From an uncultured Candidatus Saccharibacteria bacterium (lineage in GTDB: Bacteria; Patescibacteriota; Minisyncoccia; UBA6257; WO2-44-18), in NCBI GenBank assembly GCA_964373675.1, contig CAYJVO010000002.1:3054-67053 (forward strand): a DNA stretch of 64,000 bases, read 5' to 3'. Under the pieces are notes generated by a model. The model saw nothing but the letters and a program-made list of their open reading frames with translations. It was not told the origin of the DNA and searched no databases. Each line of letters starts with the position of its first letter. Position 1 is the first letter of the stretch. A program made the translations under genes and the position numbers. Below, piece by piece: positions 5,106-57,025 of the stretch.

Positions 5106-5215
5106 CTAAATTTTATTCTCCTTCGCCGAAAACCCCGGGCGGCCTACTCCGCCGAGTCTGACTCGGCTACGAAGGCTGGATAAGCCCGCGGGATGAAGGC
5201 GAGGAGCTTCATTTT
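5106..5215 (-). repeat. R1 structured repeat copy (supplies SD for the TagF-like gene and extends the dehydrogenase ORF)
   Basis: Reverse complement equals GAAGCTCCTCGCCTTCATCCCGCGGGCTTATCCAGCCTTCGTAGCCGAGTCAGACTCGGCGGAGTAGGCCGCCCGGGGTTTTCGGCGAAGGAGAATAAA, and ends 7 nt before the ATG at 5104. Confidence 0.7.
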
Positions 5216-6921: not shown

Positions 6922-7134
6922 CCCGCACATAACTAGGACTGCAACAGCCTCGCTTCTCTGAAAAAAACGCCATCATTCACAATTTTTTATCAGCAAATCT
7001 TCGTAGCAATAGCAGTTTAACGCGTTAAACGCTTTGACGCGTCAAAGCACTATCCCATGGGATAGTGCTAGGAAATAACCCCACACAGCTTTGTCTCAGG
7101 CATTGAAGAAAGCGGAGTCCTAGTTATGTGCGGG
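6922..7134. mobile_element. inverted-repeat cassette, family A copy 1 (TIR CCCGCACATAACTAGGACT / AGTCCTAGTTATGTGCGGG)
   Basis: 19-bp perfect terminal inverted repeats at 6922-6940 and 7116-7134. The interior contains the perfect palindromes GCTTTGACGCGTCAAAGC and AGCACTATCCCATGGGATAGTGCT. The interior plus right arm is repeated at 45014-45174. Confidence 0.6.
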
Positions 7135-7206
7135 GCAAGCCCCGAGAAAATTAATAACTATATTAATAATTCCTAAATTAACTTAATAACCACTCAATAA
7201 CTACCA

Positions 7207-7297
7207 AACTATAACCTGTGCTATAACCTGTGCTATAAACTACATTATAAACTGTGCTATAAACTATACTATGCTATAAACTATACTATAAACTATT
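7207..7297. repeat. iteron-like tandem repeats (CTATAAAC/CTATAACCTGTG units, about 7 copies)
   Basis: Direct reading of 7207-7297 shows the tandem units. The block lies in a 710-bp non-coding region. Confidence 0.7.
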
Positions 7298-7424: not shown

Positions 7425-7608
7425 CTGTAAGCGGAGCCGAGTCTGACTCGGCGGAGCCCCACGCCTTTGGCAGGGCAATGCTCGCCCGTGGCAGGGCGTG
7501 ACGCCCGGGATATTCTTTGAATGAAGCTCCACGGCCTTATCTAGCCTTCGTAGCCGAGTCAGACTCGGCGGAGTAGGCCGCCCGGGGTTTTCGGCGAAGG
7601 AGAATAAA
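7425..7608 (+). repeat. R1 structured repeat family (one partial and one full copy) with GCCGAGTCWGACTCGGC hairpin
   Basis: CTTCGTAGCCGAGTCAGACTCGGCGGAGTAGGCCGCCCGGGGTTTTCGGCGAAGGAGAATAAA at 7546-7608 also occurs at 5106-5170 (reverse complement) and 56953-57024. A partial copy lies at 7425-7460. The local context is GC-rich. Confidence 0.7.
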
Positions 7609-19139: not shown

Positions 19140-20239
19140 GAATTTAATGATAGCATTTTATTGTAAATAACGTTGTATAGCTGGGCAGTTTTCCCCCAAC
19201 TCATTGAACGCGCAAAAGAAATCGAATTTTTCGACATATCAAACCTCAAATCGGGATTAGATAATATTTTCTCCATAGCGGCTGAAGCGCTCTTTGGGTT
19301 CTGCGGACTTACCAAAATGCCGTTCTTCCCGTCCCTAACCGCGTCTTCCGCGCTAGTTTCTTTAGTAGTAATCACCGGCAATCCGGCGGCCGCCGCCTCC
19401 AAGAAAACCAGTCCAAAACCTTCAATGTCTTTGTTAACATCCTGCGGCATTAATATAAAAAGCTCGGCGTTTTTATAAACCGATATCAATTCTTCCTCCG
19501 ATAAATTTTCTAAAAAAACAACCCGATCTTGATACTTGATACTTGATACTTGCCGCTGAAGCGCTTCGTACTCCGGCCCTTTCCCGACAATCACGTATTT
19601 CAAACCTGGAAACTTCTTGGCTACTTCCGCGAATGCCGCGATTGAATATTCGTATCCTTTTCGTTGCTTTAATGTTCCAACGCTTAATATATAAGGTTTC
19701 AATTTCTGGACTTCCGATGTCCCAATATTGACGTCAATGGTTTGGACATCGGAAGTCCCTGATATTGATTCGAATTTTGTAAAATCAACGCCGTGATTAA
19801 TAACAGAGATTTCCAAATCCGGCAAAAATTTCTGGATTTCTCTTTTGGTATTATTACTAACCGCTATTACCCTAAACGCTCTTTTATACGCCCATTTCAT
19901 AATCGGCCGTCTCCACCAGCTGTAAAACGGCTTAACCGCCCCGGTGCCAATGCCGGTTATAATTAGTTTTTTTCTTGATCCTAAAGATACTATGGCCGCA
20001 ATCACGCCATATGGCCAGCCATCCAAGGCATGAATAATATCGCAATATTTAAAGGCTCGACGAATACAGAAATAGAAAAAAGGTAATTGCCAACATTTTT
20101 TCGGCAAACCGCTATCATGAGTTAAAACTTCATATTGAAAATCTGGAACAATCTTTTCAAGAGCGCTGATTAGCGAATGATAAAACCGCCCGGCGCCAGT
20201 TTTATCGCTTAAATCATGATTAAGATAACAAATTTTCAT
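19136..20239 (-). CDS. GT4-family glycosyltransferase
   Basis: YVIVGKGPEYEAL...FGLVFLEAAAAGLPVITT is the GT4 C-domain signature. A heptamer-repeat-encoded loop (QVSSIKYQ) is present. Confidence 0.8.
   Translation of the reverse strand: MKICYLNHDLSDKTGAGRFYHSLISALEKIVPDFQYEVLTHDSGLPKKCWQLPFFYFCIRRAFKYCDIIHALDGWPYGVIAAIVSLGSRKKLIITGIGTGAVKPFYSWWRRPIMKWAYKRAFRVIAVSNNTKREIQKFLPDLEISVINHGVDFTKFESISGTSDVQTIDVNIGTSEVQKLKPYILSVGTLKQRKGYEYSIAAFAEVAKKFPGLKYVIVGKGPEYEALQRQVSSIKYQDRVVFLENLSEEELISVYKNAELFILMPQDVNKDIEGFGLVFLEAAAAGLPVITTKETSAEDAVRDGKNGILVSPQNPKSASAAMEKILSNPDLRFDMSKNSISFARSMSWGKTAQLYNVIYNKMLSLNS
19528..19552. repeat. heptamer tandem array (CTTGATA x3.5) inside GT4 CDS
   Basis: CTTGATACTTGATACTTGATACTTG. 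It is in-frame and encodes QVSSIKYQ. Confidence 0.8.
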
Positions 20240-28179: not shown

Positions 28180-30477
28180 TCAATAATTGAGTGTGTTTAA
28201 AATTTCTACTAGCTTTGTCATACAATTTCCTATTGAAAATTGTTTGGCCTTTTCTTTGGCATTTCTTACTATCTTTTCTCTAAAATTCTTATCACTGCCA
28301 ATTTTTCTAATAGCGGCCAGAATTTGTTCTTTGCGGTTGGGCTCAACCAAAATCCCTTCTTTGCCGTCATCAATGATTTCGGCTAAATTGCCGATCTTGG
28401 TAGTTATAACCGGCAGGCCGGCATTCATTGCTTCCACCACCTGAAATGAAAAACTCTCAAAAGAAGTATTTAAGACAAAAACCGTCACGCTATGCAATAA
28501 TTCCAATAATTTTTCTCGTGGAACGGCATCCAAGAAATCAACTTTATTTTTGACACCTGACACCTGACACTTGACACCGAGCGCTTCACGCTCTGGCCCG
28601 TCTCCCACAATCACCAATTTCCAGTCCGGCAAATCCCGCATTAAGTCAATCAAAACATCGAACCCCTTCCACGGCACCAGACGGCCAGCCGATAGAATGG
28701 TTTTGAGTTGATGAGTTGATGAGTTGATGAGTTTTTTGGATGGCGGATTATCTAGCTGTATGCCGTTGTAGATGACTTTCACTTTTTCCGGATTTTTTAT
28801 CCAGCCGCCGACTAGTTTTTGGAAGTACTGGCTGGGAGTGATAATTATCTTGGCCTGATTGGCAACAAACTTTTGCACGCTGCGCAATAATTCTGTTCGC
28901 AATCCATATCTTTTTTGCTGAAACTCATCAATAGAATCTTTAACCCCAAAACGCTGGGCCGCCTGCTCCCAAGCATAATCGCCGGCAACTCTCATAATAA
29001 AGGGCTTTCTCAAAACCTTGGCTGCCAGCATTGCCGGCAATCCTACGCTGACTGGATCCTGCGAATAAACAATGTCATTCCTCCGCGCCCTTAACAGACA
29101 TTTGAAAAAATAAATCAAATGGCGAATGCCAATCGGCCAGCGCCTGACAACCCGAAAGGGCAGAACCGCGATGCTCATTCCGTGCTTCGGCAATTCTTTT
29201 TCCAAAAGAGCGGTGTAAGTTGCCGGACCGCCGATCTCCGGAGGATAAATTCCGGTAGCTACTAAAAGTCGTGTAATTGGTAATTTGTAATTGGTAATTA
29301 GAGCTTGGAAAATATTTTTAATTTTTGATGCAATTTTGTCCCAGGAATAATTTTCTAAAACTAGCTTTCTTCCATTTTCAGCTATTTTGTTTCTTAGAAT
29401 ATCATTTTCCATCAAACCTTTTATCTTTCCAGCCACATCCTTAAAGTCATCAACTTGACAAAAAAGGCCCGTCTCGCCATCCTTTAAGAAATCAGAAATT
29501 CCCCCAACTGGAGTTCCGATAATTGGCAAGCCGGCCGCCATGGCTTCCAAAAAAGAATTGCCTAATCCTTCGGAACGAGATGGTCTTACAAAAATATCTG
29601 CCCCAGCCAAATAATTCGGTATCTTGTCCGGATCAACGTGGCCCAGAAACTCAATTTTGTCGGCTACTCCTAAATCCGAGGCTAGCTTTTTTAACTTTTC
29701 TTCATCTGGTCCAGAACCTAAAACCTGACACCTGATACTTGACACCTGATACTTCTTTAATTCTGCTACAGTTCGAATTAACGTATCAATGCCATTTTTA
29801 TGAACTAACCGCGAAGTTGTTATAAGGGTATAGGGTTTAGCGTTTAGGGTTTTAGATTTTTCACTATACGCCATACGCTTAACGCTAAACGCTTCAACAT
29901 TCACGCCATTCGGCACTACTTCAATCGGACACCTGGCTCCGTGCCGTCGCGCAAAATCCATCAGATAATTGCTGATTACTTGAATATAATCGGCCTTTTT
30001 GAATAAAAACCGCCACAAAGGATAAAAAATCCCCACCCGCCTCAAAATATGCGATTCGCTATCCCCCTCCTGCAGCGTAAGAAGAAGCGGGATGGACGGA
30101 TGCCGCAACTTGAAAAAAAGCGCGGCCATGCCGCCATAAGAAGCCATTATTGCCCAAATTAACTTAAAGGACTTTTTTTTGTGTTCTTGCTCTGCCGTTC
30201 GCCAAGCGCGAAAAGCGTACAAAATTTTTTTAAAAAAGTGGCCGTAATAATCGTGCTGGTTGAGGCCGCCGCTCCCGATCCTAATTACCTCAACATTGCT
30301 TATCTTTTCCCGCGAAAGCCAATGCCGGTCAAATTTGTAGGTAAAACAAAAAAAATTATCATCCGGCAGCCGATCAGTAATTTCTTTAACTGCCACTTCC
30401 GCGCCTCCCACGAAAGGAAAATAAGCGGTGCTGAAAATAACGATTTTAGGACTCATAAATCTTTTCTGTTTCTTCAA
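28180..30477 (-). CDS. tandem double GT4 glycosyltransferase (two GT-B units, 765 aa)
   Basis: Two GT4 signatures: VLGSGPDEEKL...GLGNSFLEAMAAGLPIIGT and VIVGDGPEREAL...SFQVVEAMNAGLPVITT. The gene contains five heptamer/octamer arrays in loop positions. Confidence 0.75.
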   Translation of the reverse strand: MKKQKRFMSPKIVIFSTAYFPFVGGAEVAVKEITDRLPDDNFFCFTYKFDRHWLSREKISNVEVIRIGSGGLNQHDYYGHFFKKILYAFRAWRTAEQEHKKKSFKLIWAIMASYGGMAALFFKLRHPSIPLLLTLQEGDSESHILRRVGIFYPLWRFLFKKADYIQVISNYLMDFARRHGARCPIEVVPNGVNVEAFSVKRMAYSEKSKTLNAKPYTLITTSRLVHKNGIDTLIRTVAELKKYQVSSIRCQVLGSGPDEEKLKKLASDLGVADKIEFLGHVDPDKIPNYLAGADIFVRPSRSEGLGNSFLEAMAAGLPIIGTPVGGISDFLKDGETGLFCQVDDFKDVAGKIKGLMENDILRNKIAENGRKLVLENYSWDKIASKIKNIFQALITNYKLPITRLLVATGIYPPEIGGPATYTALLEKELPKHGMSIAVLPFRVVRRWPIGIRHLIYFFKCLLRARRNDIVYSQDPVSVGLPAMLAAKVLRKPFIMRVAGDYAWEQAAQRFGVKDSIDEFQQKRYGLRTELLRSVQKFVANQAKIIITPSQYFQKLVGGWIKNPEKVKVIYNGIQLDNPPSKKLINSSTHQLKTILSAGRLVPWKGFDVLIDLMRDLPDWKLVIVGDGPEREALGVKCQVSGVKNKVDFLDAVPREKLLELLHSVTVFVLNTSFESFSFQVVEAMNAGLPVITTKIGNLAEIIDDGKEGILVEPNRKEQILAAIRKIGSDKNFREKIVRNAKEKAKQFSIGNCMTKLVEILNTLNY
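28551..28578. repeat. heptamer tandem array (TGACACC x4) inside double-GT4 CDS
   Basis: TGACACCTGACACCTGACACTTGACACC. It encodes GVKCQVSGVK. Confidence 0.85.
28704..28733. repeat. octamer tandem array (TGAGTTGA x3.5) inside double-GT4 CDS
   Basis: TGAGTTGATGAGTTGATGAGTTGATGAGTT. It encodes LINSSTHQLK. Confidence 0.8.
29274..29301. repeat. heptamer tandem array (TAATTGG x4) inside double-GT4 CDS
   Basis: TAATTGGTAATTTGTAATTGGTAATTAG. Confidence 0.8.
29724..29754. repeat. heptamer tandem array (CCTGAYA x4.4) inside double-GT4 CDS
   Basis: CCTGACACCTGATACTTGACACCTGATACTT. It encodes KYQVSSIRCQV. Confidence 0.85.
29832..29858. repeat. heptamer tandem array (AGGGTTT x4) inside double-GT4 CDS
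   Basis: AGGGTTTAGCGTTTAGGGTTTTAGATT. Confidence 0.7.
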
Positions 30478-37083: not shown

Positions 37084-37165
37084 ATCCGTATCAGGTATCA
37101 AGTGTCAAGAATTGAAATTTGCTAATGTTATAAAAAAATGTAAACCTGATACTTGAAACATGAAA
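37084..37165. promoter_or_regulatory. divergent intergenic region: inverted heptamer arrays (GTATCAGGTATCAAGTGTCAAG / CCTGATACTTGAAACATGAAACC) flanking a 33-bp AT-rich core
   Basis: The two arrays are in opposite orientation around AATTGAAATTTGCTAATGTTATAAAAAAATGTA, which carries TTGAAA and TATAAA hexamers, between the regulator and galU. Confidence 0.5.
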
Positions 37166-41464: not shown

Positions 41465-41491
41465 TTAGCACTCCCATTGCAAGAGTGCTAA
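41465..41491. promoter_or_regulatory. CIRCE operator (HrcA-binding inverted repeat) upstream of clpB
   Basis: TTAGCACTC-CCATTGCAA-GAGTGCTAA is a perfect match to the CIRCE consensus TTAGCACTC-N9-GAGTGCTAA. It lies about 115 nt upstream of the clpB start and overlaps the stop of the cysteine desulfurase gene. Confidence 0.8.
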
Positions 41492-42822
41492 CAAGATTTT
41501 TCGCCAACTATTTTTTCTAATATTTTCACAAAATAATCAATTTCCTTTTTAATTGTCTGCCGTCCAAAAGTAATCCGCAAACTTCCCAGAGCTCGCTCAT
41601 CCAAAAATCCCATTGCCTTCAGCACCGGCGATGGCTGAACAACTCGTGCTGAACAGGCGACGCCGGAAGAAACCGCAATGCCGACCAGGTCCAATTTTAT
41701 AACCAATTCATGCGCCTTTTGGCCGGGAAAATAAATATTCAAATTATTGGGAACGCGTTTCTCTAAAAAACCGTTAAGCTGGACCGCTGGGGCTTTTTTT
41801 AACTTTTTCCAGCAATAATCCCGTAATGTCCGAACTCGCTTTGCTTCTCTATTTCTTAGCGCTCTAGAAATCTCTACGGCTTTACCAAAACCGACTATTG
41901 AAGGCGTATTTGGCGTTCCGGACCACAAACCGCCCGGCTCCTGTCCCCCGCCGGTAACTATAGGCAAAATGGGTAATGTAAAATGCGACCTGGAATTTTT
42001 ATTCTGTTCTTGTCGCTTGTCGCTTGTCTCATTAAACATTTTCCCAACATACAACGCTCCAATTCCCTTAGGACCGTAAATCTTGTGCGCCGACAAAGTC
42101 ATTAAATCAACGCCCAGCTGATCAACATTGCAGTTTAAATACTGAAAGGCCTGAACGGCGTCGGTGTGGAGAAGGGGGTAGAATGTAGAATTTTGAATAT
42201 TGAATTTAGGATTTTTATTTTTCCAATATTCTATATTCTGTATTCTATATTCTTGAATCGCTTCGGCGATTTCCGCAATTGGCTGAATGGTCCCCACCTC
42301 ATTATTCACATACATCACTGAAACCAAAACCGTCCGCTCGTTGAGGGCGGTTTCTAATTTTTTCAAATCAACGAAGCCATCGCGCGAAACCGGAATATAA
42401 ACCACTTCCACGCCTTCTTTTTCCAAATCTTTCGCCGTTTCCAAAACCGACGCGTGTTCAAAAGCTGAAATGATAAGGCGAGGAGTTAGAATATGGGATT
42501 TAGAATCTAGGGATTTTTTATTTTTAGAAAGAGCCCCGTTCCTCAATCCTATATTCTGAATTCTAAATTCTTTTATTGCTCCCCGCAGCGCCAAATTATT
42601 CGCTTCCGTCGCCGACCCCGTAAAAATTATTTCATCGTATTTAGCGCCAATCGCTTCGGCAATTGTCTTGCGGGCCTTAAAAATAGCGGCCGACGCCTCT
42701 TGTCCAAGTTGGTGTACTGATCCTGCGTTCCCATAAACTTCGCTAAAATACGGGTTCATGGCCGCTTTAACATGTTTATCCACCGGTGCTGACGCCGCGT
42801 AATCTAAATACATACGTTTCAT
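41488..42822 (-). CDS. cysteine desulfurase (IscS/NifS family) with three low-complexity insertions
   Basis: Class V aminotransferase fold with SAHKIYGPKGIGALYV (PLP-Lys region) and the C-terminal SSGVACS active-site Cys loop. Three insertions are encoded by heptamer arrays at 41993-42030, 42178-42258 and 42486-42573. Confidence 0.8.
   Translation of the reverse strand: MKRMYLDYAASAPVDKHVKAAMNPYFSEVYGNAGSVHQLGQEASAAIFKARKTIAEAIGAKYDEIIFTGSATEANNLALRGAIKEFRIQNIGLRNGALSKNKKSLDSKSHILTPRLIISAFEHASVLETAKDLEKEGVEVVYIPVSRDGFVDLKKLETALNERTVLVSVMYVNNEVGTIQPIAEIAEAIQEYRIQNIEYWKNKNPKFNIQNSTFYPLLHTDAVQAFQYLNCNVDQLGVDLMTLSAHKIYGPKGIGALYVGKMFNETSDKRQEQNKNSRSHFTLPILPIVTGGGQEPGGLWSGTPNTPSIVGFGKAVEISRALRNREAKRVRTLRDYCWKKLKKAPAVQLNGFLEKRVPNNLNIYFPGQKAHELVIKLDLVGIAVSSGVACSARVVQPSPVLKAMGFLDERALGSLRITFGRQTIKKEIDYFVKILEKIVGEKSC
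42178..42258. repeat. palindromic pair of heptamer arrays (GTAGAAT... / ...ATATTCT) inside cysteine desulfurase CDS
   Basis: GTAGAATGTAGAATTTTGAATATTGAAT ... AATATTCTATATTCTGTATTCTATATTCT around a TTTTATTTTTCC centre. It is in-frame. Confidence 0.8.
42486..42573. repeat. second palindromic heptamer-array pair (TAGAATA/TGGGATT ... ATTCTGA/ATTCTAA) inside cysteine desulfurase CDS
   Basis: TAGAATATGGGATTTAGAATCTAGGGATT TTTTATTTTTAG ... AATCCTATATTCTGAATTCTAAATTC. It is in-frame. Confidence 0.8.
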
Positions 42823-42888
42823 ACAAGTATCTTATTATCTTTGACAAGCATTACAAAATAGTATAATTTATCTGTAAAATCAATTCTT

Positions 42889-43371
42889 ATGCAATTATTG
42901 TTTAACAATTCCCTTGGCGCCAAACTAACCCCTGATGATGTCATCGGCGAAATAATCAAATTCATGAACGCTGATCCTCATCGCTGTTATAAAGTCATCA
43001 TCGGAACTGATTCGGAGCGTTCCGCTGACAACACCGCCGATTTTGTAACGGCAATTGTCATTCACCGCTTAGGAAATGGCGGGCGATACTTTTGGCGACG
43101 GATTGAACCAAAAACCAAATATCACACCTTAAGGGGCCGCATCACTGGAGAAGTTTTGATGTCTTTGGACATTGCCCGGGAATTACTTCAGGCTATGAAA
43201 AATTACCAAGTTCCGAAATTTGATTTTGAAATTCATGTGGATGTTGGGGAAAACGGCGCGACTAAAACAATGATTCAGGAACTAGTCGGCATGATTCGGG
43301 CTAATAATTTTGAAGCCAAAACCAAACCCGAAAGCTACGCCGCCAGCAAAGTCGCGGACCGCCATATTTAG
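42889..43371 (+). CDS. RNase H-like fold protein (YkuK/DUF458-like)
   Basis: 160 aa. The KVIIGTDSE strand with a catalytic-type Asp resembles the DUF458 family. Assignment is from memory of the family motif. Confidence 0.35.
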   Translation: MQLLFNNSLGAKLTPDDVIGEIIKFMNADPHRCYKVIIGTDSERSADNTADFVTAIVIHRLGNGGRYFWRRIEPKTKYHTLRGRITGEVLMSLDIARELLQAMKNYQVPKFDFEIHVDVGENGATKTMIQELVGMIRANNFEAKTKPESYAASKVADRHI

Positions 43372-43398
43372 TTTCAAGTTTCAGGTGTCAGGTATCAA
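43369..43398. repeat. heptamer array (reverse orientation; AGTTTCAGGTGTCAGGTATCAAG) 5' of four-helix-bundle gene
   Basis: Reverse complement is CTTGATACCTGACACCTGAAACT. Confidence 0.75.
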
Positions 43399-43402
43399 GT
43401 AA

Positions 43403-43759
43403 ATGGAAAAGGGTTATAAAAAATTGATGGCCTACCGCGAAGGTCACAAATTAGTTCTGCAAACTTATCTTGCAACTAGTAAGTTTCCTAAGTCAGAATT
43501 ATTCGGACTTGTTTCTCAAATGCGTAGGGCGGCGGTGTCTGTGGTGGCAAACATCTTAGAAGGCCAGGCCAGAATAAGTAAAAAGGAATTTAAAAATTTC
43601 ATCTCTATCACTAATGGATCCCTTGTTGAATTGGAATATTATCTTGAACTATCACGAGAATTGAATTACATTAACAGGAACGATTATGAGGAAGTAGAAA
43701 AGCAAAGAGCTCTTACTGGCTCTTTATTGGGTGGATTACTTCGTTACCTTAAATCTTAA
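43403..43759 (+). CDS. four-helix-bundle protein (23S rRNA intervening-sequence protein family; Avd-like)
   Basis: 118 aa. YREGHKLVLQTY...LVSQMRRAAVSVVANILEG...NGSLVELEYYLELS matches the TIGR02436-type four-helix-bundle family. Confidence 0.7.
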   Translation: MEKGYKKLMAYREGHKLVLQTYLATSKFPKSELFGLVSQMRRAAVSVVANILEGQARISKKEFKNFISITNGSLVELEYYLELSRELNYINRNDYEEVEKQRALTGSLLGGLLRYLKS

Positions 43760-43830
43760 CTTGACACCTGACACCTGATACCTGATACCTGACACATAAC
43801 ACCTGACACCTGATACATGATACATGACAC
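43759..43830. repeat. heptamer array, about 10 units (CTTGACA CCTGACA CCTGATA ... CATGACA), 3' of four-helix-bundle gene and overlapping start of next ORF
   Basis: Direct reading of 43759-43830. This is the longest array in the window, in the opposite orientation to 43369-43398. Confidence 0.85.
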
Positions 43831-44386
43831 TTTAGTAATTGATATTGAAACCAAAAATACCTTCGCCGAAGTCGGCGGTCAAGAAAATGTCAAAAAGTTA
43901 GATGCCTCTTTTGTGGGCGTCTATTCGTATAATCAAAACAAGTACCTGTCATTTTTTGAAAATCAATTTGGCGAACTTAACAAGTTTTTAAAAACTGCCG
44001 GATTAATAATTGGCTTTAGTATTAACCGCTTTGACATTCCGGTTTTAGAAAAATATTTAGACTTTAATATTTGGTCCATTCCCCGTCTAGATCTTTTAGA
44101 AGAAATTGAAATTGGTTTTGGCAATCGGATTAGTTTGGATGTGCTGGCGAAAACTAATTTAGGCATCGGCAAAACCCACCACGGCCTAGAAGCGATCAAA
44201 TTTTATAAAGAGCGAAATTGGAAAGAGCTGGAAAGCTACTGCCTTAATGACGTGAAAATCACCAAGGAACTTTACGAACTCGCCAAAAAACAAAAGCACC
44301 TCTCCATCCCCGACCGCACCACCGGCGTTTTAACAAAGGTGAACTTTAACTTTCCCGAAATCATCTTCCCGCAAACGCTTTTATAA
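43817..44386 (+). CDS. DEDDy-type 3'-5' exonuclease domain protein
   Basis: LVIDIETKN is Exo I (D-x-E), and YCLNDVKITKELYE is the Exo III Y-x3-D. 189 aa. Confidence 0.5.
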   Translation: MIHDTLVIDIETKNTFAEVGGQENVKKLDASFVGVYSYNQNKYLSFFENQFGELNKFLKTAGLIIGFSINRFDIPVLEKYLDFNIWSIPRLDLLEEIEIGFGNRISLDVLAKTNLGIGKTHHGLEAIKFYKERNWKELESYCLNDVKITKELYELAKKQKHLSIPDRTTGVLTKVNFNFPEIIFPQTLL

Positions 44387-44937: not shown

Positions 44938-45013
44938 GATTTTCTCCTGTAAAAAGCCGGCTGGTATAATATCACATCTACAAAATAATGCAAGCCCCCA
45001 CGCCTAATAAGCG

Positions 45014-45174
45014 CTTCCACAATTTTTTATCAGCAAATCTTCGTAGCAATAGCAGTTTAACGCGTTAAACGCTTTGACGCGTCAAAGCACTATCCCATGG
45101 AATAGTGTTAGGAAATAACCCCACACAGCTTTGTCTCGGGCATTAAAGAAAACAAAGTCTTAGTTATGTGCGGG
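45014..45174. mobile_element. partial copy of family A cassette (interior plus right arm AGTCTTAGTTATGTGCGGG)
   Basis: About 95% identical to 6975-7134. It is flanked by a 23-bp direct repeat GCAAGCCCCCACGCCTAATAAGC (44989-45011 and 45175-45197) and followed by a 16-bp-stem hairpin. Confidence 0.6.
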
Positions 45175-45226
45175 GCAAGCCCCCACGCCTAATAAGCACC
45201 TCTTTTATTAGGTGTGGGGGCAAGCC

Positions 45227-46162
45227 TTATCCGGAGATTAATTTTTTAAATTCTTTCAGTTTGGCTAAAAAGGTTTTTTTATCCTTAGCTTCTAAGTTCA
45301 GGCGCAGGAGGTCTTCGGTCTGTGATGGCCGCACATTAAACCACCAGGCCCCAAATTCCATTTTCAGACCATCTAGATGAGAAAGTCTTTGGGCTTCTTT
45401 TTTATATTTCTGTTCAATCTTTGTTAAAATTTTTTCTTTGTCGCTGACTCTAAAATTTATCTCTCCGGAACGATGATATTTTGGTAAGCCATCAATCCAC
45501 TCACCCAAACTCAAGCCTTGATACCTGATACCTGATATCTGATTCATAAAATAAATCGCCGTCAAAATTCCTGAATCCCAAACCGCGCTGAATTCCTTAA
45601 ACTTAAAGTAGTAATGCCCGGAAGTTTCGGCAGCAAAATCAATTTTCTTTTTATTCATCAGTTTTTTAATAAAGTAATGGCCAACTCGCGAATTAATAAT
45701 TTTTTTGCCATCGGCTGAAATCAATTCTCTGGCTAAATAGCCGGCGCGAACATCTAAAATCAAGGGTCCTTTAAAACTTCTACTTATCAACACTGCCACC
45801 GCATCCGGCGCCACCGGCTGGCCACGATCGTCTAAGAAAAATACCCGATCACCATCCGCGTCAAAAATAATGCCGAGGTCGGCTTTATGTTTACGCACTG
45901 CTGTCCGCAAATCATTAAACGCATCTCTCCTCCATGGATCCGGCCCATGCGCCGGAAAACGACCATCAGGTCTATCATTAATTAAAATAGGCTTAACTCT
46001 TGATACTTGACGCTTGACACTTGATACTCGGAAAAGTTCTTTAAGAACTTTTCCGGTGGTTCCATTAGAGCAATCAAAAACAACTTTTAAAGCTCTTTCT
46101 AGCTTTAAAAACTTTTTCAAAAAATTTATGTATAACTCCAAATAATCCATGTCGCATTTCAC
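45227..46162 (-). CDS. phosphoglucomutase/phosphomannomutase, C-terminal domains II-IV (split from N-terminal ORF; GTG start)
   Basis: 311 aa starting at a GTG that overlaps the stop of the upstream ORF (AAAATGTGAAATGC). Contains in-frame heptamer arrays at 45527-45546 and 45999-46028. Confidence 0.65.
   Translation of the reverse strand: MKCDMDYLELYINFLKKFLKLERALKVVFDCSNGTTGKVLKELFRVSSVKRQVSRVKPILINDRPDGRFPAHGPDPWRRDAFNDLRTAVRKHKADLGIIFDADGDRVFFLDDRGQPVAPDAVAVLISRSFKGPLILDVRAGYLARELISADGKKIINSRVGHYFIKKLMNKKKIDFAAETSGHYYFKFKEFSAVWDSGILTAIYFMNQISGIRYQGLSLGEWIDGLPKYHRSGEINFRVSDKEKILTKIEQKYKKEAQRLSHLDGLKMEFGAWWFNVRPSQTEDLLRLNLEAKDKKTFLAKLKEFKKLISG
45527..45546. repeat. heptamer array (CCTGATA x3) inside PMM CDS
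   Basis: CTTGATACCTGATACCTGATATCTGATT. It encodes QISGIRYQG. Confidence 0.75.
45999..46028. repeat. heptamer array (CTTGAYR x4) inside PMM CDS
   Basis: CTTGATACTTGACGCTTGACACTTGATACT. It encodes VSSVKRQVSRVK. Confidence 0.75.
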
Positions 46163-46614
46163 ATTTTGCCTTTTACCATCGATAAAATTTCCTTGCCGCT
46201 GATTGGCGCTGCTTTCGGCCCAACAATTTTTAACCCGTTGTATTCTTTTGGGTTATGGGAAGCCGTGATTATAATCCCGCCAATTGCCTTAAAATGGTTT
46301 ACCAAAAAATAAAGCATTGGCGTGGTGATCATTCCCGCTTCCACAATCTTGACACCTGATACCTGACACATGACACGCACCATCGTTTCATACAACGCCG
46401 GCGAGCTCAATCTCGCGTCGTGTCCCACCATTACAACTTTTGACTTTTGACCTTCCCTCGACCTGAGCTCGGGACGAAGGTTGGCTTTTGACTTGAAAAA
46501 ATAGCGACCCAACGCGTAGGCAATTCTAGCCGCTATTTTTTCATTTATCTCCTCCGGATACCGACCGCGGATGTCGTATGCTTTGAATATTGCTTTATTT
46601 ATCATTAGTTTCAT
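46159..46614 (-). CDS. phosphoglucomutase/phosphomannomutase, N-terminal domain I (contains active-site TASHNP)
   Basis: GGIIITASHNPKEYNGLKIVG is the PGM/PMM phosphoserine loop. 151 aa, ending 4 nt into the next ORF. Confidence 0.7.
   Translation of the reverse strand: MKLMINKAIFKAYDIRGRYPEEINEKIAARIAYALGRYFFKSKANLRPELRSREGQKSKVVMVGHDARLSSPALYETMVRVMCQVSGVKIVEAGMITTPMLYFLVNHFKAIGGIIITASHNPKEYNGLKIVGPKAAPISGKEILSMVKGKM
46339..46368. repeat. heptamer array (CTTGACA CCTGATA CCTGACA CATGACA) inside PMM N-domain CDS
   Basis: It encodes VMCQVSGVKI. Confidence 0.8.
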
Positions 46615-56924: not shown

Positions 56925-57025
56925 TCTATGTGCAGGGTTCATCCCGCGGGCTTATCCAGCCTTCGTAGCTGAAGCTACTTCGGCGGAGTAGGCCGCCCGG
57001 GGTTTTCGGCGAAGGAGAATAAAAG
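56925..57025 (+). repeat. R1 structured repeat copy (variant hairpin GTAGCTGAAGCTAC)
   Basis: ATCCCGCGGGCTTATCCAGCCTTCGTAGC...GGCGGAGTAGGCCGCCCGGGGTTTTCGGCGAAGGAGAATAAA is shared with 5106-5215 and 7535-7608. Confidence 0.7.

Follow-up and report, generated by a model that had tools for sequence, protein, structure and literature searches.

Intervening sequences (IVSs) of 23S rRNA genes, known from Coxiella burnetii, Leptospira and other bacteria, are the described systems that come closest to the element analyzed here. In the Coxiella IVS, a terminal stem of 28 bp holds an S23p open reading frame (ORF) in its loop, GACAGAT is repeated in tandem three to four times directly before the S23p ATG, and cleavage by RNase III at the first repeat was shown experimentally (PMC4990558). 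The S23p family was also reported in rRNA insertions of the Candidate Phyla Radiation (CPR) and between cas genes, and was termed functionally uncharacterised. We analyzed a 64,000-nt stretch of contig CAYJVO010000002.1 from an uncultured Candidatus Saccharibacteria bacterium (referred to below as the window) and identified an S23p-family gene, encoding a four-helix-bundle (4HB) protein, between two inverted arrays of tandem heptamers. The region 43370-43830 is probably a self-contained IVS-type cassette inserted, in the same orientation as its neighbors, at the exact point where a ykuK-like gene ends with its stop codon and a DEDD exonuclease gene begins with its start codon.

Among the periodic repeats of prokaryotic intergenic DNA, tandem heptamers have been reported as the commonest, with 'no clear clue' as to what they do (10.1101/309039). 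The GGGAATC heptamers of Xanthomonas occur as convergent inverted pairs (PMC4692102), and the GGGACCG heptamers of Geobacter form elements of 4-5 units within and between genes (PMC2700814). The start codon of XCC0516, which encodes the protein crystallised as 2GSC, is overlapped by a 4-unit GGGAATC array located at a distance of 6 nt from bccP (Rehm et al. supplement). In the open-access literature we found no published link between the PF05635/S23p family and heptamer arrays other than the Coxiella IVS note, and an earlier description is possible. Avd, the accessory protein of diversity-generating retroelements (DGRs), is a pentamer that binds RNA and an enzyme partner. REPIN/RAYT systems and MITEs (miniature transposable elements with inverted repeats) have short palindromic non-coding copies that are dispersed alongside a protein-coding partner.

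The locus comprises three plus-strand ORFs of 160, 118 and 189 aa with minus-strand genes on either side. The first, ORF1 (42889-43371), encodes a YkuK-type RNase H-like (DUF458) protein of 160 aa (PF04308 RNaseH_like, E = 1.9e-46). The second (43403-43759) encodes the 118-aa 4HB protein of the S23p / 23S-rRNA-IVS family (PF05635, TIGR02436). The third, ORF3 (43817-44386), encodes a DEDD (Y-x3-D) 3'-5' exonuclease-like protein of 189 aa (PF13482 RNase_H_2, E = 1.9e-7), in which the exonuclease motifs VIDIET (DIET), NRFD and YCLND (Y-x3-D) are legible, consistent with a DEDDy label. The 4HB gene is bracketed by a 5' arm at 43370-43401 (about 4.4 heptamer units) and a 3' arm at 43759-43830 (about 10 units of CYTGAYA/CATGAYA), both given on the plus strand. 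The 5' arm consists of AGTTTCA twice, then GGTGTCA, GGTATCA and AGT; it starts at the TAG of ORF1, so that ORF1 itself is outside the cassette, and ends 1 nt upstream of the 4HB ATG. The 3' arm begins at the 4HB stop codon TAA and includes the ATG of ORF3. Tandem Repeats Finder (TRF) assigns period 7 to both arrays, with 4.4 copies at 43370-43400 and 9.9 copies at 43762-43830, the latter having the top period-7 score in the window; the 3' arm can also be described as a duplicated 35-nt block of five units (1.9 copies, 93% identity). The arms are reverse-complementary at 28 of 33 positions, and the minimum free energy (MFE) fold joins the 5' arm to the 3' arm over the latter's first ~30 nt, leaving the ORF in the loop. 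Thus, the gene coordinates, the RNase H-like and DEDDy labels, and the placement of the 4HB gene between inverted heptamer arrays agree with what the initial annotation had read from the letters.

Period-7 arrays are present in the window beyond chance, 16 being detected with none expected, versus at most two for periods 4-6 and 8-10; TRF confirmed them. Besides that of the cassette, the units present in the window are GAATRTT/TAGAATA, AGGGTTT/ACGCTTA, GAACTTT, AATTTTA, GTAATTG and CTTGTCG. The same arrangement, identical, was found in two independent assemblies of other samples (L001 and L002), and the spacing between the 4HB gene and ORF3 is equal in three independent assemblies, so no array-length variation is apparent. 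In the cassette and upstream of it, the promoter scan listed no plus-strand sigma-70-like promoter; a TTGACA-15 nt-TATAAT sequence is legible at 42841-42867, with a spacer outside the range of the scan. Rfam gave no rRNA match in the window, the cassette being located between two protein-coding genes, and neither a direct repeat nor a convincing target-site duplication was seen around the arms.

About 2000 homologues of ORF1 were found. Identity is 64-82% for the best 120, and those few with a named source come from Patescibacteria/Paceibacterota metagenome-assembled genomes; the named homologues point to a Parcubacteria/Paceibacteria-like member of the Patescibacteria as the organism of the window. 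In every relative examined, the exonuclease gene follows the ykuK-like gene. L083, the closest relative found (ORF1 80% and ORF3 78% identical to the window), has an empty junction, the ORF1 stop overlapping the ORF3 start (TAAATG; ATGGATAAA) with zero intervening sequence. At the same junction L086 has a 61-nt heptamer mini-hairpin insert with AGCTTYT units, and L087 a 107-nt hairpin with CTAGGGT units. The L084/L085 junction (4487-4868 in L084) is occupied by a 382-nt insert with a decayed GxxExxY gene between GAATATG / ATATTCG repeats; the L084 protein matches TIGR04256 with 56.4 bits when the internal stop is removed. GxxExxY is thereby a second small-protein family in a repeat-flanked cassette at the ykuK/exonuclease junction (L084, also L085). 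ORF3 starts with MDKL in every relative that has no cassette and with MIHDT in the window, and since MIHDT is encoded by repeat units, the array has replaced the original ORF3 start. An array-derived start of the form M[IT]xDT is common to all cassette-bearing relatives at this junction.

The cassette is therefore an insertion relative to the closest relatives found. The ykuK-like and DEDD exonuclease genes are a conserved host pair, with the 4HB gene and its arms as the inserted part. The initial annotation had treated the three genes as one islet that might be a mobile cassette. The islet as such does not stand, as L083, L086 and L087 have ORF1 next to ORF3 with no 4HB gene between them and close relatives of the 4HB gene are situated in at least three other genomic contexts; mobility is favoured for the middle gene, the flanking genes being the host pair, and what the closest relatives found lack is the 4HB cassette, the enzyme gene pair being retained. 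Conserved three-gene synteny without repeats had been named as an outcome speaking against the islet. The synteny does recur, in four more distant relatives with the cassette at the same junction (L089/L090, L092, L096), but always with repeats. These relatives have ORF1 55-65%, ORF3 41-49% and the 4HB protein 67-72% identical to the window and share its heptamer family, the 3' array at the junction comprising 2.5-3 units versus 10 in the window. The presence of the cassette in distant lineages and its absence or replacement in nearer ones point either to repeated entry into a permissive junction or to old inheritance with loss and replacement.

A family-alignment scan of species-representative genomes yielded 80 loci, of which 75 were analyzed with both flanks. 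The phyla include Patescibacteria, Omnitrophota, Planctomycetota, Acidobacteriota, Bacteroidota, Desulfobacterota, Gammaproteobacteria, Nitrospirota and Chloroflexota. As controls we used 223 other ORFs from the same 75 loci, and an inverted repeat was called at a score of 24 or more. A flanking inverted repeat was detected at 80% of the 4HB loci versus 5% of the control ORFs, and a period-7 array on at least one side at 71% versus 16%. Where both arms are arrays, the 5' consensus is the reverse complement of the 3' consensus with at most two mismatches in 45 of 48 cases. The median arm is 33 nt long (four units being commonest, range 2-14), and by the medians the 5' arm ends 6 nt before the ATG and the 3' arm starts 5 nt after the stop codon. 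The cassettes are co-oriented within gene strings, their arms filling the spacers: 87% share the orientation of both neighbors, and the gaps of 45 and 39 nt match the arm length. At 69 of 94 loci the sense strand of the 5' arm unit is rich in purines (p = 6e-6).

Genes of varied function surround the 4HB genes, among them gatC/gatA, rfb, nrd and cas6/cas4. In plasmids of cultured cyanobacteria, genes annotated as 'four helix bundle' are flanked by heptamer arrays, as in Nostoc edaphicum, where 8 copies of GTAGGGA and 4.5 copies of TCCCTAC surround a 4HB gene between nrd genes. Among about 160 fetched loci no cassette was found inside rRNA, as no rRNA motifs or non-coding flanks were present. 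Taken together, inverted heptamer arms and the 4HB gene between them form a unit that is conserved across phyla.

The heptamer itself follows the protein. Arms of the RGTRTCA / CYTGAYA type were found in all nine loci with proteins 66-78% identical to that of the window (L089-L096, L110), which include several near-duplicate pairs and are spread over at least four genomic sites, whereas the next 4HB clade (about 50% identity) has GTCACAA-type arms. Over 90 distinct proteins, protein identity and heptamer distance are correlated with a Spearman coefficient of -0.26, below all 999 permutations; the heptamer is shared in 67-93% of pairs at 65% identity or more, versus 2-6% of pairs below 55%. Additional 4HB paralogues within single fetched loci each lie between their own, different inverted arrays. 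Array length varies between close relatives at one site, for example between L093 and L095. Each 4HB lineage thus keeps its own heptamer, which is shared by close relatives at different sites.

The 118-aa protein matches PF05635 (23S_rRNA_IVP) with E = 2.8e-32 and 111.5 bits (cut-off 33.8) and TIGR02436 with 104.7 bits (cut-off 24). Among solved structures, Xcc0516 (2GSC, E = 6.5e-19) is the closest relative and BT_0352 (2RLD) the next, both having five chains. The AlphaFold (AF2) monomer model consists of four long helices, with a predicted local distance difference test score (pLDDT) of 96.6; it superimposes on 2GSC with a TM-score (TM) of 0.96 and a root mean square deviation of 1.1 Å at 37% identity, on 2RLD with a TM of ~0.8, and on Avd with a TM of 0.79 (4DWL) and ~0.8 (the DGR ribonucleoprotein 8UB7) at 10% identity. 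The earlier assignment of this protein to the 23S-rRNA-IVS / 4HB family, with an Avd-like fold, is borne out by both profiles and by the model. The helix-2 motif RxxxSxxxNxxE, reported earlier for the family (PMC3936711), is present, with R42, S46 and N50 invariant and E53 nearly so among 26 sequences. The protein is basic, with an isoelectric point of 9.4. A ratio of non-synonymous to synonymous substitutions (dN/dS) of 0.14 between two close relatives indicates purifying selection, and in many relatives a clear Shine-Dalgarno sequence lies between the 5' arm and the ATG. By these sequence features, the gene appears to encode an expressed and constrained protein and not to be a decaying ORF. 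No catalytic family was matched by the 118-aa protein in a Pfam/TIGRFAM-type profile search, and no 4HB homologues were found in phage genomes. We also considered whether the pentamer corresponds to five heptamers and rejected this idea, as the commonest arm has four units and the range is 2-14; the duplicated 35-nt block of the window is no more than suggestive.

Arrays of the cassette's unit are dispersed in the same genome, as one ORF-less hairpin and as solo in-frame insertions in protein loops. Tandem [YA][YA]TGAYA occurs at 10 places in the window, versus 0.15 expected: three matches in the cassette arms, one hairpin, and six solo arrays in minus-strand genes. The hairpin (37089-37157, plus strand; found by pattern search) reads GTATCAG, GTATCAA, GTGTCAA and onward to CCTGATA and CTTGAAAC. 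It has a fold energy of -14.9 kcal/mol, abuts the ATG of an NTP-transferase gene at 37160 and looks like a cargo-free copy of the 4HB element. The solo arrays, again given on the plus strand, include 3.6 copies of CTTGATA at 19528-19552, inside a minus-strand GT4 glycosyltransferase gene, and two arrays inside a 765-aa double-GT4 ORF, at 28549-28577 (four copies of YYTGACA) and at 29715-29751 (CCTGACA, CCTGATA, CTTGACA, CCTGATA). The other three are located in a minus-strand phosphoglucomutase-like gene, at 45517-45543 (variable loop IRYQGLS), at 45999-46028 (variable loop SSVKRQVSRVK) and at 46348-46376, in its N-terminal fragment (QVSGVK). The single orientation of the solo arrays is explained by the unit: CCTGAYA contains TGA and the 7-nt period runs through all three frames, so that only the complementary orientation can be read through within a gene. 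In the IscS-like and phosphoglucomutase-like genes, alignment with orthologues identifies the arrays as in-frame insertions that are specific to a lineage and located in variable loops, and shows that the same loops hold other heptamer-derived insertions in other lineages. Across the loci, 28% of the arrays outside the cassette (within a few kb) match its unit, versus 3.5% for mismatched pairings, and at least one matching array was found outside the cassette in 22 of 45 loci.

The host genes of these arrays have further features. The IscS-like cysteine desulfurase gene (41488-42822) has three heptamer-derived in-frame insertions, at 42009-42028, 42178-42253 and 42482-42571, two of which are inverted-array hairpins with TAGAATA-type units. 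The L086 orthologue has none of the three, and the L084 orthologue has no insertion at the first site and different heptamer-derived ones at the other two. The phosphoglucomutase-like gene is broken into two overlapping ORFs (45227-46162 and 46159-46614); it is also split in three relatives and is intact in L086, and a ParE-toxin gene occupies the split point in L083. The 765-aa ORF (28180-30477) comprises two complete GT4 glycosyltransferase units and five heptamer arrays, by which two adjacent genes may have been fused.

The element in the window is an IVS-type S23p cassette outside rRNA. It shares with the IVSs of Coxiella, Leptospira and others a protein of the same family encoded in a loop, a stem of ~28-30 bp and heptamers before the ATG. 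A further likeness would be co-transcription with the host gene, described for the IVS (PMC4990558) and presumed for the window cassette. It differs in standing between protein-coding genes and not in helix 25/45 of 23S rRNA, in its longer arms (4 and 10 units) and intact ORF, the Coxiella ORF being described as decaying, and in being accompanied by dispersed solo arrays of its unit. Xcc0516 and BT_0352 are homopentameric 4HB proteins of unknown function that share the RxxxSxxxNxxE motif with the window protein, which was modelled as a monomer; the heptamer next to Xcc0516 is GGGAATC versus CYTGAYA in the window. Avd resembles the window protein in fold and basic character and differs in sequence, its profiles scoring below their cut-offs, and heptamer arms are no feature of DGRs. 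Prokaryotic heptamer simple sequence repeats, such as the cyanobacterial STRR and those of Xanthomonas and Geobacter, are likewise tandem 7-nt units, typically in 4-5 copies and often in convergent inverted pairs, within and between genes; their descriptions treat them as G-quadruplex, phase-variation or regulator sites without drawing a link to 4HB proteins (PMC4692102, PMC2700814, 10.1101/309039), whereas those of the window stand on both sides of a 4HB gene, with which they share their lineage. REPIN/RAYT systems and MITEs provide a parallel for dispersed non-coding copies with a coding partner in the genome, and Rickettsia palindromic elements for in-frame insertion into protein-coding genes. 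Unlike REPIN/RAYT systems and MITEs, the cassette has a cargo without transposase, its arms are tandem arrays of variable length, and no target-site duplication accompanies it.

By analogy with Coxiella, the following scenario can be proposed. The cassette, having no obvious promoter of its own, would be transcribed together with the host genes; its arms would pair in the transcript to form a stem of ~30 bp, and cleavage of this stem by RNase III would release the 4HB message from its polycistronic transcript. The Avd-like protein, which is basic and probably pentameric, may then bind its cognate heptamer arrays, as RNA or DNA, and such binding could underlie the spread and maintenance of both arrays and cassette. 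As the mismatch spectrum of the arms bears no sign of selection for RNA pairing, a DNA-level role of the arms is equally open, in which protein-bound arrays would act as sites of recombination or replication slippage.

Several observations weigh against a mobile cassette with paired arms. The cassette encodes no catalytic domain for mobility, no target-site duplication was seen, and its presence in distant and absence from near relatives can also be read as old inheritance with losses. The co-variation of protein and heptamer could reflect co-inheritance alone. Wobble asymmetry was not detected across the arms (79 sense G-U-type versus 96 A-C-type mismatches, with 167 transversions), hence no covariation support for an RNA structure is claimed; the arms share unit variants in shuffled order, and the fold of the whole cassette is not significantly more stable than those of shuffled sequences (z = -1.24). 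About 20-30% of the 4HB family members have no detectable arrays. Finally, at least one cassette breaks the pattern: in the Pseudanabaena galeata plasmid NZ_CP112875.1 (L172, 46268-46627) a 4HB gene between cas6 and cas4 is flanked by direct and not inverted arrays, 14 copies of AAAGCTA upstream and 10 copies of AAAGCCA downstream.

Among other explanations, the 4HB protein could be a domesticated host regulator, for which the dispersed arrays are operator or RNA sites and the inverted arms serve autoregulation, nothing being mobile. Cognate arrays are often located at start codons (the hairpin at 37089-37157 and the XCC0516 array), the 5' arm unit is mostly purine-rich, the protein is under purifying selection, and heptamer arrays were proposed as sites of global regulators in the Geobacter genome paper (PMC2700814). 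We nevertheless regard this explanation as unlikely, since many cognate arrays are lineage-specific in-frame insertions in variable loops of coding regions, the gene is patchy among close relatives, several paralogues with private units occur within a few kb, different elements occupy the same junction in different lineages, and the family is also found in rRNA intervening sequences. It is still harder to maintain that the arrays are ordinary slippage-prone repeats, possibly phase-variable and common in the genome, with the 4HB gene between two of them by accident. The 16 period-7 arrays of at least six different units in the window, and the overlap of the 3' array with the start of the exonuclease gene, would fit such an accident, which however leaves little room for the 16-fold excess of flanking inverted arrays at 4HB genes over the other genes in these loci, for one unit being common to both arms and tracking the protein lineage across sites and genomes, and for the constant 4HB-ORF3 spacing in three independent assemblies.

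Two further possibilities build on the initial annotation. The three genes could form one unit, a nucleic-acid-processing or defence system in which the 4HB protein is an adaptor between an RNase H-like protein and a DEDDy exonuclease. They are co-oriented and tightly packed, their order recurs in the four distant relatives, and the 4HB protein is folded like Avd, which serves an enzyme as adaptor. Such a system is very improbable given that the enzyme genes adjoin without the 4HB gene in the closest relatives found, with a stop/start overlap in one, that close relatives of the 4HB protein occur in unrelated contexts, and that the family is situated between all kinds of genes; for an uncharacterised nuclease system we found nothing in favour beyond adjacency, and a defence assignment, by PADLOC or otherwise, was neither sought nor found. 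A degraded DGR, namely an orphan Avd gene left after the loss of the reverse transcriptase (RT) and of the template/variable repeat (TR/VR) pair, has the least to recommend it and can practically be dismissed. The Avd-like fold (TM 0.79 to 4DWL and 8UB7) and weak matches to PF22296 bAvd (30.4 bits) and NF033474 (37.2 bits) are in its favour, but these scores are under the cut-offs of 40 and 80, respectively, and the protein is far closer to Xcc0516 (37% identity, TM 0.96), its best structural match, than to Avd (10%). RT profiles (RVT) detected no RVT domain in the 30 window ORFs of 256-1260 aa, and relatives at the same junction also have no RT among the neighbouring genes. Self-BLAST of the window showed no TR/VR-like repeat, in line with the initial reading that both RT and TR/VR are absent; the sole long repeat (166 nt) is intergenic, both copies lying between larger ORFs, and all 8 differences between them are transitions. 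An inserted IVS-type cassette therefore remains the explanation that we favour.

A broader interpretation is more tentative, and we regard it as possible though doubtful. PF05635 4HB proteins and their cognate arrays may constitute an unrecognised, cross-phylum class of self-propagating repeat elements, in which the pentamer drives the arrays without a transposase. The 4HB cassette would be the autonomous member of this class, and solo arrays and ORF-less hairpins its non-autonomous members; each Avd-like pentamer would be specific to one heptamer family and would drive array formation, spread or homing. If this holds, it would account for the over-representation of heptamers, which exceeds that of all other long simple repeats in prokaryotic genomes, and provide a function for a protein family that has been without one since 1993. 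Apart from this interpretation, the coupling of the S23p family to lineage-specific heptamers across phyla is one for which we found no published description, and the recurrent gene-array unit suggests an origin for the unexplained heptamer excess of bacteria. Two puzzles are thereby joined, a large family with solved structures and no function and an abundant class of heptamers with no role, in a single testable hypothesis, the sequence-specific binding of the 4HB pentamer to heptamer arrays, for which Xanthomonas (XCC0516) and Nostoc provide culturable systems. The link also accounts for 4HB genes inside cas operons and rRNA genes. For annotation it carries a warning, as many short insertions in Patescibacteria proteins are repeat-derived.

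Other repeats in the window were also noted. The 166-nt palindrome-rich repeat is present in two copies that are 95% identical (45013-45185 and 6978-7143) and have no Rfam match; the copy at 45013-45185 has a 12-nt direct repeat, CGCCTAATAAGC, on either side (45001-45012 and 45186-45197), and the 166-nt repeat resembles a small mobile element or a structured RNA. Another repeat of ~85 nt, which is not a tRNA and has no Rfam match, occurs in three copies that are 88-96% identical, at 5111-5197 (inverted relative to the others), 7529-7608 and 56938-57024. Lastly, an intergenic 12/24-nt tandem repeat, CTATAAACTGTG, extends over about seven copies at 7208-7296.

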